Shown here: positions 1 through 12,000 of the stretch, one piece after another
Layout of the letters: each line of letters opens with the position of its first letter
How positions within the stretch are numbered: the stretch's first letter is position 1
NCBI GenBank assembly: GCA_963787205.1
Contig: CAWBCD010000003.1
Coordinates: 286,234-350,233, forward strand
From: an uncultured bacterium
GTDB taxonomy: Bacteria > Bacteroidota > Rhodothermia > Balneolales > DATFMH01
Reading direction: 5' to 3'
DNA length: 64,000 nt
Program-made: the position numbers

Positions 1-3000
1 CTTGATTCATCATACACTATTGGCAACATATCTGTCACTAATCTAAGTGATCGTTGGAATGTAACTTTTGATGTAACATTCCAGGGAGACACCCAATCGG
101 TACAGTTTCAGGCTTTTGCTATGATGAGACCGGATGTGTCAGCTATTAAGGATGTAATAACGACACAGTTCAATGATCCGGAGCAGATTGCAAAGATATT
201 TTCCCTGTACAAAAAGAAAATCGAAAGAATTACCGGGATTCTTCATGATGCCAGATGTGTCCTGAATTTTCATAGAAATCTGTGTGAAGATTTCCTGCCC
301 ATCAAAACTGTATGTACACAGGATGTTGCCTTCTGTGCCGACATCGAGGTAACTGCGGACACCGACATCGAAGAGGTTTATGCCAATGTGTTATTTGAAC
401 TTGAAAACTATCTCAACCCGGAGGTTAGGTTTTATACGCTTAAGGGATTGGTGGATGAAGGGATTCCTTCAGAAGAGATATTTGAGGGACCGGTTTTGAG
501 TCACGGATTCATCAAAACCGATGAGTTGAAGGCAACGCAGATCAGGTCTGAAATCATCGTATCCGACATCATTAATTTCATCATGGATATCGAGGGGGTG
601 TTGGCTGTTAAAAATGTGCTGCTTACCAAATATGATAATAATGAGAATCCCATCCTGCCGAGCGAACGATGGTGCCTGAAGGTGGACGATGGATGTAAAC
701 CCGTTTTAAATATATACCGATCTAAGGTACTGTTTATTAAAGGAAATTTGCCCTTCAGGCCCAGGCTGGATGAAACGCTGGATACTTTGAAATATCTGCA
801 AGGATTGGAAAGTAAAAACAAGCTTAAAGGAACGGCCGGTGATTATGAGATGCCCAAAGGAAATTTCAGGAATCCGGAGGATTACATGTCCGTGCAGTAC
901 GAATTTCCCATGACTTACGGTATTGGCGATGTAGGTCTCCCTGACACGGCGAGCGACCAGAGAAGGGCGCAGGCAAAGCAGCTGAAGTCATACCTGATGT
1001 TTTATGATCAAATTCTGGCTGATTTCTTTTCCCAGATGTCTCATGCCAAAGATCTTTTTTCACTCAATGTCGATTTGGATCAGACCTATTTTGGACAATA
1101 TCTGAATGAAGTAAAGGGAATTGAAGAGATCTATAAAAACCCGGCAGACCTGAAAAAAATATTGAGTGCTCCTGATGCTTCCGATACAGTTAACATAAAG
1201 GAGGGAAGGGGACGTCTGATGGAGACCCGGAACGTGTTTTACGACCGACGAAATCGGTTTCTGGATCATCTCATCGCCCGTTTTGCCGAGTCGTTCAACG
1301 ATTATGTTTTGATGCTCTACGCCTACAGGAATGCAGACGAATACAGCGAGATTGATGCCAACGAGTTGCTTAAAGATAAGATCACTTTTCTGAAAGATTA
1401 CCCGGTCATCAGCAAAGAGCGGGACAAAGCCTATGATTATTTGAAACAAGCCTGGAATACGGACAATGTTTCCGGATTGGAAAAACGGCTGGCACGCCTA
1501 TCTGGAATCGATGATTATAAGCGAGGCTTCTTGTTCTGCTTATCATTAATTGAAATACAGAAAACAACTGATGCGCCGCCGAAATACTTCTTCCGGATAG
1601 CAGATGAAACAGGGACCATCCTCATAAAATCGACAAAAGAGTACGATTCATTCACTGAAATTACAGACGTGGCACTCAAACTGGGCAATGTGTTTGATGA
1701 TCCATCTTCCTATAAACCGGTCGATGTCGCATCCAACAAGTTCTCATTTAACGTGGTCGACTCTGGTAACAATGTTTTAGCAGAAAGCGGAGTTGTGTAT
1801 TCGAGCGCATCGAAACGGAATGATGCCATAAACACAATTTCCACAAAACTAGCGGCTGATTGTCCCGGCGAGGGCATGCACCTTGTGGAGCACCTGTTGC
1901 TCAGGCCGCGGTTCACGCCGCCCCAAATATCCGGTGAAACGGCCGAAAAGACGTATGAACTGTTTCAAGTCTGCCTGGGCAAGAACTGTACGTTCTGCGG
2001 AGAGGAAGACCCTTATTCTTTCCGGTTATCCCTGATATTGCCTTATTGGCATGATCGTTTTAAAACCCCCGAATTCAGGAAATTCTTCGAAACGATTGCA
2101 CGAACGGAGACACCGGCTCATTGCATGATTAAAATATGCTTCATTAACAATACCCTGATGAACACCTTCGAAAGAGCATACAAGGAATGGATGGAGGCAC
2201 TTAAAGAGTACGAGAAAGATCTGATTTCCAAAGATAGCAAGCAGGAAAAGTTGCGGCTTGCCAGTAATAAAATGATCGAAATACTAACGGTCATCCATAG
2301 TGAATATCCCGAGGCACATCTTTACGATTGCGGCCAGGTAACGCAAAACCCGGTGCTGCTCAACAACGCAATCCTAGGAACCTATAAAATCTGATACTAA
2401 TGACAGAGTTTAACACCTATCCCGTATTTGTAGCTGACCAGGTTTTAACAGCGGACCAGCTCAACGAGATTGTCAACTATCTCGATCAACAGGAAAGATT
2501 AACACGCAATAAATTAATCGGCATCGGCATCGTATGCGGCCTGGAATTGAGTGTGGCGGCTGATTCGATCTCGATGTCGGAAGGATGTGGTGTGACCTCA
2601 GAGGGATATCTTATTGTCCAGTCACAGACGAAATTCACGCACTTTCATCCTTATAATTTACCCGAATACTTTTCAACGGAGTATAAACCGATATATGACA
2701 GCTGGCATAAGTGGGAACTGCTGACGGCTCAACAATCCCTTCAATTTGATGATGTAGTCTCGTTAAAGGAAAATGCTGGTTTCACAAAAGATAAAGTGGT
2801 TGTTCTTCTGCTTGAGATGACAGAAAAACCGCTTAAAAACTGTACAGACACGAATTGTAACGACAAGGGGGAAGCCATTGAATTCAATGTCAAACCCCTG
2901 CTGGTGAATACGACCGATCTGGATAAGGTCACCAACACCCTTGGTGTACAACCGACGTCAGGCAACAGTTTGCTTTCAGTGCCGGATAAGTTTAAGAATC

Positions 3001-9000: not shown

Positions 9001-12000
9001 AATGACAGCATAAAAGGTAATCAGTGTAAGAAACAGGTTATGGTTATGATCACCGCAGAACCGAAAATAAGACCGGGTTTACATAATACGGGTTCTCATT
9101 TGTTCGGCAAGAGTAAACAGGAAAGTTTCTTTTCAACTGCTACAGACAAAACCGGGTTCTTCGGTCCGGGCGCCATCCAGCCCAAACTGGAAATAGGTGC
9201 ACCTGATGATGAATATGAAAAAGAGGCAGACCAGGTGGCGGATGCTGTGATGCGAATGCCGGATCCGAAGATCCAGCGAAAGTGTAAAAAATGCGAAGAG
9301 GAAGAAAAACTGCAAAAAAAGTCGGTTGGCACTTCTGGCCCTGGCGGGAGAAATTATGCGGGGAGTGAAATAAGCAATGAGGTCGGGACAAGTTCGGGGA
9401 GGGGAAACCAACTGCCGGAAGACGTACAGCTGGAAATGGAGCAAAAAATGGGAGCCGACTTCAGCGGAGTGACTATCCATGCCGGTTCAGATGCTCATCA
9501 TCTGAACCGGCAGTTAGGAGCACGGGCATTTACACATGGTCGCGATATCTATTTTAGTGATAGAGAATACAACCCGCAATCTGTTCGCGGGAAGCATTTG
9601 CTGGCGCATGAATTGACGCATGTATTGCAGCAAGGTGTTGTCGGAGGACAGCGTATCCAGAGGGATGGGAACTCCACAGAATCGACCGATGCGGGTCATG
9701 ACAACAGCTTCGATTTTGATTTTTCACTACTGCCGACTTCTTTAAAATTTACCCTTGGAAACTGGATGCTTCAGGCAAATACCGGCAGGACCGAACTGCA
9801 GTTCAGCCAAAATCTCTTGCGGTATAGTCTCGGTTATAACTATGGGGGGAGCATTTTTGCGGGCATCAACCGACCGGGTTTTAGCACCCGGTTAGGGGTT
9901 GATCCCACATCAGGAGAAACTTCACTGAGTATGAGATACGGTCAGTTCCGTTTGGGAGGTTCATATAATCCGGATTCAACGTCCTTTGGATTAAACTTTG
10001 GATATGGGTCACCTTTGCTTCCGATGCCAGGTGCTTTGTCACAATCGATATATGGCGGATGGGCGGGGGCTTCCTCAATTCTAGGCAGCTTAGGCAGTAT
10101 GCAGGATCCCATTAGTTTTTATCAGTCGCACCGGAGTGATATCCGTGAAGTTATGGGAGCCGTCCGGGCGCTGCAGCCCATGTTCGGTGCGCAGCATTCG
10201 GGTTTTGGCGCGGGGCTAAAGTTTAATTACAATCCTCATACAGGTATTCTTTTATATGGAGGCATGCAATGGCTGTTTTAGGTGAAAAAATCAAGATAAT
10301 ATTGCCGACTTACGTGCGTCATTGCCTTCACTGCCCGAGGGTTCATTGATGGTTCACACACGACCAATTGTCGAAGTAAGCTTTTCCGGTTTATAAATAA
10401 CCTCTGCAATGAAAGTGGCGGAATCAAAAGTCAAAACAGGTCCAGACAAGGTAGAGACTCCTTTTTTCAACAAAGGCGAAAGTCGTAGTTTCTTCTCTAC
10501 TCCGCTAAAAGGAAGAAGTAACTTCTTTGGACCCAACGCCATTCAACCCAGGCTGGAAATAGGCTCACCTGATGATGAATATGAAAAAGAGGCAGATCAG
10601 GTAGCGGATGAAGTGATGAGGATGCCGGACCCAAAGGCGCAGCGCAATCCTGTAGAAGAGGTGGATCAGTTCAGGCATAAAGATTTTTTGGCTATTCAAA
10701 AGCAGGAGTCTGGTGACAGGGGGACACCTCTATCATTAACACTACCAAGGCCATCCTTACTGCAACCCTCAATAGTCCCGGATTTCCTGGCTATGCGGCA
10801 ACCCTTTATTGATCGAAATACTTTTTATTTATGGGATTTGGATTCAGCTTTACACGTGTGGCAGTTTAACTTAAATTTTTTCAAAAGATTCGGATTATCT
10901 CCGGATTGGGCTGCAGAACTCGCTAATATTACAGCACCGCATTTCATTGATGCCCAGTTAAAAGCAAATAACCCGACCTGGTGGGAGATAACGGATCAGG
11001 AATTAAATACTACCTCTTTCGTCGGTTCAGTACCGCTGCTGGAGTTAGGACCCGATTTTTCACCTGCGGCACCTTCGTGGTTTAGATCCGTTTTTCAGCA
11101 TGGTGGCTCGTCGGTGCAGCGAAAGTGCACTACATGTGAAGAAAAAAAAAGATTGCAGCGCGAAGAAGAGGAGGAGGACAGGAATATTGTGTCACGTAAG
11201 GTTTCTGCTGATTTCGTTATAGCACGAAAATGTACATCATGCGAAAAGGAAGAAGAGAAAAAGAGACTCAGCCGGAAAAAGGATGATACATCAGGAGTAG
11301 AATACAGTCTCCGCAAAGTTGAACAAGTTTTACATTCATCAGGAGAACCATTAAATAAAGATATACAGCGATTCATGGGAGAACGCCTGGGGTATGATTT
11401 AAGCAATGTAGAGGTTCATAACGACCCCTTAGCCCATCAATCCTCAAAAGATATAAACGCTAAAGCCTATACTCATCGGAATCACATTGTTTTCGCGTCT
11501 GGTGAATACCGGCCTGATACAGATAAAGGCAAAAAATTAATTGCACATGAACTTACACATGTAGCCCAGCAAACAGGTCCTGGCGTCCGAAGAGTGATCC
11601 GGAGAAAGCATGTTGAGGAGTCTAAAAAATATGCAGGCATTGTTGATTACAAAAAAGCCAGGAAACAAAACCTCGATACTTGGTATTCTGAGTATAAATT
11701 TTTCAACCTGTTTAAAGAGAAAAAAATCTATCCCGGCTCCACGCCCATTGCCTACGCTAATCATATATATGAATTACAGACAATGATTGAAACGGCAACA
11801 AATGGTAAATGGACGCCTTCTGAATATGGCATTCTTGAAGAAACAATCACTAAAGATGCCACACTAATTCAGTTGGCTGTACTCGCCGGATTATATCACA
11901 AAGATACATCCAACACCTTTGGATTTGACCCTGCTCTACTGGAAAGAATACACAAGTATTTTGCCGCTTTTAATCCTAAAGCCCCGAGATTGGTATCCTC

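Follow-up and report, generated by a model that had tools for sequence, protein, structure and literature searches.

Distal genes of a probable AlgoCIS-type contractile injection system in a Bacteroidota chromosome

The window analysed here, a 64,000-nucleotide stretch of the chromosome of an uncultured member of the Bacteroidota, opens with a set of genes (positions 1-9005) that very probably makes up the 3' part of the module for the structure and assembly of an AlgoCIS-type contractile injection system, i.e. of clade Ib as named in the AlgoCIS paper (PMC8894135), with the roles of the Cis proteins proposed by homology. The initial annotation placed the start of the window within a distal eCIS operon segment, with a tape measure and an ATPase as its last genes, and this was borne out, ORF1 being identified as Cis12, ORF3 as a CIS_TMP protein and ORF4 as Afp15-like.

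Results

The four core genes are co-directional on the + strand and are predicted to encode a gp6/gp7-like baseplate wedge protein (cis12, ORF1, 1..2394), a tail fibre of 1258 aa (cis19, ORF2, 2400..6176), a tape measure protein of 481 aa (cis14, ORF3, 6176..7621) and an AAA+ ATPase of 460 aa (cis15, ORF4, 7623..9005). Their tight packing, reported initially, held when the junctions (2394/2400, TAGTG and 7621/7623) were re-read: the cis12 stop, TGA at 2392-2394, is followed after a 5-nt gap by the ATG of cis19 at 2400, the stop of cis19 (TAG, 6174-6176) shares one base with the GTG start of cis14 at 6176, and the TGA of cis14 (7619-7621) lies 1 nt from the ATG of cis15 at 7623, which ends with TGA at 9003-9005. 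This spacing (a 5-nt gap, a 1-nt overlap and a 1-nt gap) suggests translational coupling. The starts of ORF2, ORF3 and ORF4 were the same in an independent gene call on a Logan contig (L016) that is 99.986% identical, and since each of the four ORFs has homologs at E <= 1e-29, they are real genes and not chance ORFs. Within 1-10500, promoter-like sites were at chance level, with no excess, and terminator-like sites were below it; a Rfam search of 1-22000 gave zero matches. The 6965-bp Logan contig, from an independent sample, repeats 6965 bp of the locus with a single substitution, and it is the only contig recovered with the exact ATPase and tape measure proteins, the index counting a further one of 0.2-1 Mb; the exact ORF2 sequence was absent from the searched records. 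The genome-collection scan returned relatives only, 83% identical at best, a metagenome scan with the tube protein of one relative (L001) gave 80 relatives, none of which overlaps the window, and with the L001 sheath fragment as query the best match was only 70% identical.

The order of the genes upstream was read from 15 genome relatives gathered via Cis12, as far as each contig extends. Within that reach, the upstream core-gene order was the same in all 15 loci, 10 of which extend back to the sheath. L001, whose Cis12 shares 83% aa identity, carries the sheath, two gp19-type tubes, a 57-aa DUF5908-like ORF (4e-11 to a protein of another relative, L018), CIS_tube, VgrG, PAAR and gp25, and then a 1124-aa baseplate-J protein before Cis12; its sheath, tube, tube-initiator, spike, PAAR, gp25 and baseplate-J genes were recognized by Pfam. 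The closest relative, L101, shares 83% DNA identity over 1-8080 of the window and has the order cis11-cis12-cis19-cis14-cis15. Cis11 is 1124-1260 aa long in the relatives, and its gene abuts or overlaps cis12 in most of them. AlgoCIS-like systems are marked by an extended Cis11 (spike cage), a Cis6 plug (DUF5908) and a cap adaptor (Cis16B), to which the long Cis11, the 57-aa ORF of L001 and, in L018, the gene after the cap gene would correspond. Gene identities and gene order, like the conserved upstream synteny in relatives, are direct observations.

No cap homolog was detected anywhere in the 64-kb window by tblastn with Afp16 and two clade-Ib-type caps (E > 2), nor did any cluster gene match Pfam Pvc16_N (DUF4255). 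Two downstream ORFs of 185 aa and 179 aa were considered as a hidden cap and rejected, having no similarity to Afp16 or the two clade-Ib-type caps. In all 30 relatives with enough flank, the cap gene lies 2.2-5.5 kb upstream of tube1 and upstream of the sheath (in L018, a 356-aa gene follows it); from these relatives, a cap gene is expected upstream of the window. The ATPase is indeed not followed by a cap gene, as pointed out earlier, but this is no peculiarity of the locus. Similarly, the order does differ from that of Afp/PVC, as had been claimed, but with the cap gene 5' of the sheath in 30/30 relatives it is standard for AlgoCIS-like systems. With the upstream half of the operon known from relatives only and no cap gene within the window, it could be supposed that the cluster is a remnant, decaying or truncated, and has lost the capacity to build particles, e.g. 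because its upstream half is missing in the genome. We reject this reading as very improbable: all 12 genes within 1-21627 are uninterrupted, the four core genes have a spacing that suggests coupling, the 6965 bp recur in the second sample with one substitution, and L101 and L001, at 83% DNA identity and 83% Cis12 aa identity, respectively, keep the same intact genes.

Frame 1 of 1-2394 is free of stop codons until the TGA that ends it, so that cis12 is open at nt 1, as had been noted. Of the roughly 1012 codons of the gene, the last 797 fall within the window and about 215 upstream of it; aligned to the complete L101 protein, the encoded part shares 88% identity with residues 216-1012. Neither Pfam nor NCBIfam has a model that Cis12 matched above its cut-off, and the NCBIfam search gave no match for any of ORF1-3. 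The presence of a gp6/gp7-like wedge protein of an eCIS-type gene set was recognized by phmmer against the PDB, with matches to All3315 (9.7e-115), Alg12 (1.9e-109), SalCis12 (5e-16), Pvc12 (1.7e-9) and Afp12 (2.2e-8).

Directly after cis12, with its start 5 nt past it, comes the Cis19-type fibre gene, a trait of AlgoCIS-like systems. In the PDB, Cis19 matched 9wt0_a (1.3e-80), collinear over residues 3-1102, and All3314, the Cis19 of the thylakoid-anchored CIS (tCIS) of Anabaena PCC 7120 (1.2e-65); 833 homologs were found at E <= 1e-10. We identified 9wt0_a, a PKD-domain protein of A. machipongonensis, as Alg19, judging from source, name and its 1443-aa length. Alg19 is a trimeric, TssK-like fibre (PMC8894135; 10.1101/2025.10.08.681156), and the N-terminal ~900 aa of Cis19 are collinear with its shoulder/neck/middle part as described there. 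Ig/PKD-type sequence is abundant in the C-terminal ~350 aa: a PKD domain at residues 991-1069 (5370..5606, + strand; Pfam PKD_4 6.3e-10, PKD 1.9e-8) is flanked by weaker Ig-type matches (Big_9/Cadherin_5 at 939-983 and LtfC-like at about 1130-1216). The initial statement that there is no separate tail-fibre gene thus did not hold, as ORF2 itself, in the afp13 position, is assigned as the tail fibre, of the Cis19/Alg19 family. The fibre is 185 aa shorter than Alg19 (1258 vs 1443), and its last ~156 aa do not align to Alg19; this leaves space for about four Ig-like domains, but probably none for a helical tip like the one that Alg19 is reported to have. A shortened, Ig-only tip without a helical bundle would be one pointer to antibacterial action.

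Amoebophilus T6SS subtype iv and the thylakoid-anchored Anabaena CIS are close relatives of AlgoCIS, and the genes could be as identified here and still belong to a machine that, like these two, is not released but does its work while anchored within the cell that produces it. All three modes of action occur in clade Ib (PMC8894135), and extracellular and cell-anchored action are not separable by sequence alone; moreover, ORF1 and ORF2 are homologous to All3315 and All3314, All3315 being, by a small margin over Alg12, the best PDB match of ORF1. We nevertheless consider a cell-attached mode unlikely. ORF1 lacks the All3315 block at about 716-1071 (~350 aa), the alignment jumping from 715 to 1072 with ORF1 continuous, and is collinear with Alg12 instead; the block lies within the Cis12 extension that the tCIS paper analysed as tCIS-specific (All3315 residues 610-1100; PMC8894136; PDB 7b5h), and this extension was not found in ORF1. 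A Cis13 gene with a transmembrane segment beside cis12 was found neither in the window, where the cis12-cis19 gap is only 5 nt, nor in the relatives. ORF2 and the AlgoCIS fibre are collinear for 1100 residues, whereas ORF2 aligns to the tCIS Cis19 in just four separate blocks, and the host is from another phylum, not a cyanobacterium. An AlgoCIS-type system remains our preferred reading.

An Afp14-like tape measure had been proposed for ORF3, and Cis14 indeed fits Pfam CIS_TMP (PF19268) at 3e-114 over profile positions 1-463 of 463, its C-terminal 160 aa being 28% identical to Afp14 (BLASTP, E 8e-13); no relative of Cis14 was found in the PDB. Cis15 (Pfam AAA, 2.9e-29) consists of an N-domain (about 1-205) and one AAA module, in agreement with the single-module ATPase first described, and both motifs were located and are intact, Walker A GPPGTGKT at residues 261-268 (8403..8426, + strand) and Walker B ILFFDEAD at residues 315-322 (8565..8588, + strand). 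It is 43% identical to residues 438-693 of Afp15, the D2 module (E 3e-65), D2 being the active module in Pvc15 (PMC11495950), and its N-domain is weakly similar to that of Afp15 (E 0.002). The best PDB matches are p97/Cdc48, and two related clusters (L003 and L007) encode homologs with about 50% identity. Cis15 is accordingly assigned as an AAA+ ATPase orthologous to Afp15/Pvc15, and the adjacency of cis14 and cis15 reproduces the afp14-afp15 synteny that had been recognized.

There is no gene between the cis15 stop (9005) and the following ATG at 9040, which opens the first of three cargo-type genes of the cluster, all on the + strand and all encoding the eCIS_core domain (DUF4157, PF13699), another AlgoCIS-like trait. 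The first (9040..10281, 413 aa, 1.5e-29) encodes an N-terminal leader, eCIS_core at residues 124-199 and a C-terminal domain; the second (10409..14914, 1501 aa) has eCIS_core at residues 314-390 (3.2e-28) and PG_binding_1 at 555-626 (3.3e-10), and over its first ~80 aa it shares 61% identity with the beginning of the first; the third (17051..18271, 406 aa) has eCIS_core at residues 63-139 (6.8e-28). The NTD-DUF4157-CTD layout is common to the three proteins and the leader to two of them. It matches the layout of AlgoCIS Cgo1/Cgo2 (PMC8894135; 10.64898/2026.05.27.728243), which sit in the tube lumen (PMC8894135); PVC and MAC cargo is without DUF4157 (10.64898/2026.05.27.728243). The other genes in the range 14899..21627 are likewise co-directional on the + strand: putative cluster genes of 512 aa (14899-16437) and 185 aa (16456-17013), a gene with PG_binding and CHAP domain matches (18433-19209), one with PKD repeats (19469-21091) and a putative gene of 179 aa (21088-21627), the last of the cluster. 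The 1501-aa DUF4157 protein with its peptidoglycan-binding domain and the PG_binding+CHAP hydrolase may be seen as an enlarged, cell-wall-aimed cargo set, a second antibacterial pointer; alternatively, the hydrolase could be a lysis enzyme releasing particles. The cluster stops short of - strand genes starting at 21788, and it is flanked by ordinary chromosomal genes (glycoside hydrolases, RND efflux, kinases).

Since phage baseplate proteins of the gp6/gp7 type are distant homologs of Cis12, and a fibre with a tape measure is also a phage layout, the region could be read as an R-type tailocin or as the tail module of a contractile prophage rather than as a CIS that injects cargo. This reading, to which we give hardly any credence, is rejected: the tape measure fits a CIS-specific Pfam family over its full length, it is followed by the Afp15-orthologous ATPase and then by the three eCIS_core genes, no capsid, portal, terminase or integrase domain was found among ~30 scanned window ORFs, and the flanks are those of a chromosome.

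Discussion

The likeness to AlgoCIS of Algoriphagus machipongonensis (clade Ib eCIS; PMC8894135; PDB 7aeb, 9wsz, 9wt0) extends beyond the collinearity of Cis12 with Alg12 and of the fibre with Alg19 over about 1100 residues. The tape measure is similar in size (481 aa vs 526), as is the ATPase if judged by where its Walker B glutamate falls (residue 320, against E292 in Alg15), the cargo-type genes share the Cgo1/Cgo2 layout, and the relatives of the locus have a long Cis11 (> 1100 aa) and carry their cap gene upstream of the sheath. Besides the fibre, the differences are three DUF4157 genes against two, together with the PG_binding+CHAP gene and the PKD gene, and the placement of cis15 next to cis14, ahead of the cargo genes, which is the sole local quirk. 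In AlgoCIS, one locus tag (12700) lies between alg19 (12705) and cgo1 (12695), tags as quoted in the text of PMC8894135; since only that tag separates the two, we deduce that at most one of the tape measure and ATPase genes can lie ahead of the cargo there. The loading ATPase moved directly behind the tape measure would be a third antibacterial pointer.

The Afp of Serratia entomophila and the PVC of Photorhabdus share with the locus the functional order of wedge, fibre, tape measure and ATPase, and the sequence homology to Afp12, Pvc12, Afp14 and Afp15 described above. However, the fibre here is a TssK-like Cis19, of a family unrelated to Afp13/Pvc13, the 460-aa ATPase contains a single AAA module where Afp has N-D1-D2 (696 aa), the gene after the ATPase is an eCIS_core gene and not the DUF4255 cap gene of Afp, and the cargo-type proteins carry DUF4157. 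The classical Afp/PVC arrangement, where a tandem-AAA Cis15 of about 700 aa is followed by the cap gene, was not found at this locus.

From the genes alone, we infer how particles would form, be released into the medium, acquire their length, be loaded with cargo and meet a target. The Cis12 and Cis11 pair would make up the six wedges of the baseplate iris, the C-terminal part of Cis12 holding the fibre, and Cis19 would form six homotrimeric fibres docked on the iris vertices via the TssK-like shoulder, with the variable Ig/PKD-rich C-terminus reaching the target as the receptor-binding part; the experimental basis for these roles of Alg12 and Alg19 is given in PMC8894135 and 10.1101/2025.10.08.681156. 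Cis14 would thread the tube and set the particle length, 481 aa at 0.229 nm per residue predicting about 110 nm, and Cis15 would be a non-structural hexameric AAA+ unfoldase, using the N-terminal leaders of the DUF4157 cargo proteins encoded downstream to load them into the tube lumen. In AlgoCIS, Alg14 sets particle length and Alg15 is required for cargo loading (10.64898/2026.05.27.728243). The sheath, tube, spike, PAAR, gp25, Cis11 and cap genes would lie upstream of the window, as in the relatives. It is conceivable, although we hold it doubtful, that the sub-lineage consisting of the window, L101 and L001 represents an antibacterial AlgoCIS variant.

The AlgoCIS type is already well studied, and this locus is one more intact cluster that opens no new question. 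It does expose a gap in annotation: despite solved structures and hundreds of homologs, there is no Pfam or NCBIfam model for Cis12 or for the first ~900 residues of Cis19, and public records still label cis12 and cis19 genes "hypothetical" or "PKD domain-containing". The fibre tip and the cargo set are unlike those of the model system, and could help the engineering of fibre and cargo-leader swaps (PROCIS preprint).

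Results

The first 9005 nt of the window hold four plus-strand genes packed almost end to end. No stop interrupts frame 1 before the TGA at 2392-2394, and ORF1 (cis12) is therefore cut by the window edge; ORF2 (cis19) runs from ATG 2400 to TAG 6174-6176, ORF3 (cis14) from GTG 6176, within a TAGTG overlap, to TGA 7619-7621, and ORF4 (cis15) from ATG 7623 to TGA 9003-9005. A Logan contig, L016 (run ERR11523667, 6965 bp), matches window 2265-9229 with one base different, the sole change being T816S in ORF2, and gene prediction run independently on that contig arrived at the same three starts as in the window. 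The initial annotation, which had described four tightly packed co-directional genes with the first open at nt 1, was thus borne out in every detail. An exact-protein index also counts one 0.2-1 Mb contig with identical ATPase and tape measure. Since promoter-like sites were at chance level, terminator-like sites below chance, and no family was matched in an Rfam search, the picture in window 1-9005 fits a single transcription unit.

For the 797 codons of ORF1 inside the window, neither Pfam nor NCBIfam has a model that scores above cut-off; compared with solved baseplate wedge proteins, ORF1 matches All3315 of the thylakoid-anchored Anabaena system (tCIS) at 9.7e-115 and Alg12 of the Algoriphagus machipongonensis system (AlgoCIS) at 1.9e-109, with weaker matches to SalCis12 (5e-16), Pvc12 (1.7e-9) and Afp12 (2.2e-8). 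While it is collinear with Alg12 up to the C-terminus, its alignment to All3315 jumps over residues 716-1071, which fall within the Cis12 extension (residues 610-1100) analysed in the tCIS paper as a distinctive feature (PMC8894136). The closest relative, L101, has 83% DNA identity to window 1-8080 and a Cis12 of 1012 aa, of which the window begins at residue 216, so that ~645 nt of cis12 lie outside the window; in L101 the end of cis11 overlaps the start of cis12, and cis15 begins 2 nt after cis14.

With ORF1 as query, 15 loci (41-83% identity) were found in species-representative genomes, spread over Cytophagales, Sphingobacteriales, Chitinophagales, Bacteroidales and Ignavibacteria. As far as the contigs reach, all 15 have the order sheath, tube, tube, cis7, vgrG, PAAR, gp25, cis11, cis12, cis19, cis14; in L001, whose Cis12 is 83% identical, each upstream gene was confirmed by Pfam and a 57-aa DUF5908-like plug ORF is also present. 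This shared gene order argues strongly that sheath and tube genes should lie upstream of the window. The alternative named in the initial annotation, in which the large ORFs would fall in unrelated families, fails, as ORF1-ORF4 match known CIS families.

A tail-fibre gene, reported as lacking between the ATPase and the cargo genes, is present in the locus as ORF2 (1258 aa). The sole domain that Pfam detects is PKD (residues 991-1069), and residues 3-1102 are collinear with residues 11-1110 of chain 9wt0_a (1.3e-80), a 1443-aa "PKD domain-containing protein" of A. machipongonensis, which by source, name and length we take to be Alg19; the match to All3314, the tCIS Cis19, is 1.2e-65. Alg19 is described as a homotrimeric tail fibre that docks through a TssK-like shoulder on the Alg12 C-terminal loop at every iris vertex of the baseplate, and that binds target cells with its flexible, Ig-rich C-terminal part (PMC8894135; 10.1101/2025.10.08.681156; 10.64898/2026.05.27.728243). 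Among 15 homologs, ORF2 is most conserved at residues 1-100 and 301-500 and most variable at 501-700 and 1101-1258, and variability at the C-terminal end would be expected of the receptor-binding part. With 833 matches at E <= 1e-10 the family is large, and most members are named "hypothetical" or "PKD domain-containing". Despite solved structures and hundreds of homologs, neither Cis12 nor the first ~900 residues of Cis19 is covered by any Pfam or NCBIfam model, which is an annotation gap and no biological novelty.

ORF3 (481 aa) matches Pfam CIS_TMP from end to end (3e-114) and its C-terminal 160 residues match Afp14 itself (8e-13), in agreement with the tape-measure-like termini noted earlier. 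The single-module AAA+ ATPase proposed to follow it was likewise recovered: ORF4 (460 aa) has one AAA module (Pfam, 2.9e-29), with the Walker motifs GPPGTGKT at nt 8403-8426 and ILFFDEAD at nt 8565-8588, and is 43% identical to Afp15 residues 438-693 (3e-65), its N-domain showing weak similarity to that of Afp15 (E 0.002). Given that Pvc15 is arranged N-D1-D2 with D2 as the sole active ATPase domain (PMC11495950), ORF4 corresponds to N plus D2. Its Walker B glutamate is E320, as against E292 in Alg15 (10.64898/2026.05.27.728243), which suggests that the two proteins are of similar size.

No cap homolog was found anywhere in the window, in keeping with the reported lack of one between ATPase and cargo, nor, in the 15 genome loci, within ~10 kb past cis12. 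Of the metagenome and Logan relatives whose sequence extends 5 kb or more upstream of the first tube gene, 30/30 have a cap homolog on the same strand, 2.2-5.5 kb upstream of that gene, and 0/30 have one downstream. In one relative, L018, a Pvc16_N cap gene is first in the operon, followed by a gene of 356 aa that may encode a cap adaptor and then by the sheath genes. On the Serratia entomophila plasmid, in contrast, the tape measure gene (554 aa) is followed by the ATPase gene (696 aa) and then by a DUF4255 cap gene. The order of the window thus differs from that of Afp/PVC, as was claimed, but it is the regular order of the AlgoCIS-type lineage.

The position of cis15 is the one local peculiarity of the window locus. 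It directly follows cis14 in the window, L101 and L001, whereas in most other relatives it comes after the DUF4157 genes (L003, L007) or before the cap gene, as in the metagenome relatives L034, L055 and L058, where it sits immediately upstream of that gene at the operon start; its position is therefore the mobile element in an otherwise fixed order. Between alg19 (12705) and cgo1 (12695) AlgoCIS has a single locus tag, from which we deduce that tape measure and ATPase cannot both precede the cargo there. The Aureibacter tunicatorum plasmid pAT3 (L020) has a CIS cluster of permuted gene order (cis12-like, tape measure, ATPase, plug, spike ... cap, sheath, tube), with a 3843-aa CDS at 8494-20025 annotated as CIS tape measure, about eight times the usual length.

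Downstream of ORF4, all genes up to 21627 are on the plus strand: three with Pfam eCIS_core (DUF4157) domains (starts 9040, 10409 and 17051), a 258-aa PG_binding_1 and CHAP protein (Pfam; 18433-19209) inside the CIS cluster, one PKD-repeat protein and three proteins without clear family. The eCIS_core proteins are laid out like Cgo1 and Cgo2 (N-terminal region, DUF4157, C-terminal domain), which fill the AlgoCIS tube lumen (PMC8894135). The first two share an N-terminal leader of ~80 aa with 61% identity (window 9040-9280 and 10409-10650), FFS..FFGP.AIQP.LEIG.PDDEYEKEADQVAD.VMRMPDP, visible in the DNA as a 59-nt repeat at 9171-9229 and 10537-10595; this leader is a candidate for the loading signal that Cis15 recognises. 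The PG_binding and CHAP protein could be antibacterial cargo or a particle-releasing lysis enzyme. A peptidoglycan-binding domain is also present in the 1501-aa cargo protein (10409-14914).

Elsewhere in the window the genes are of ordinary chromosomal kinds (glycoside hydrolases, RND efflux, kinases, ECF sigma factor), and no phage head, packaging or integration domains were seen among the window ORFs scanned. Two large Ser/Thr protein kinase and TPR proteins (46956-49454, 50397-53306) flank an ECF sigma factor gene (49743-50354). At 53607-56048 (minus strand), an 812-aa protein carries FG-GAP repeats along with a thiol-activated (cholesterol-dependent) cytolysin domain (PF01289, 1.4e-29), an unusual pairing for a Bacteroidota-type chromosome.

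Discussion

While the gene identities come from this analysis, the putative roles are carried over from experiments on homologs. Heterodimers of Cis11 and Cis12 would form the iris, and six Cis19 trimers would bridge adjacent wedges, keep the machine stable before firing and attach to the target. Cis14 would set particle length, its 481 residues at 0.229 nm per residue (10.64898/2026.05.27.728243) predicting ~110 nm. Cis15 would be absent from finished particles and act in ATP-dependent cargo loading, with the DUF4157 cargo carried in the tube and expelled upon contraction. From the closeness to AlgoCIS and the absence of tCIS-specific features, we infer that the particles would be released into the medium; a cell-anchored mode of action is improbable. 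The sequence comparisons thus support the reading of this region as the distal part of an eCIS operon of a structurally characterised kind. The system departs from AlgoCIS in small ways, at the tip of the fibre, in the set of cargo proteins and in where cis15 sits, and adds to an already known, structurally characterised AlgoCIS-like kind.
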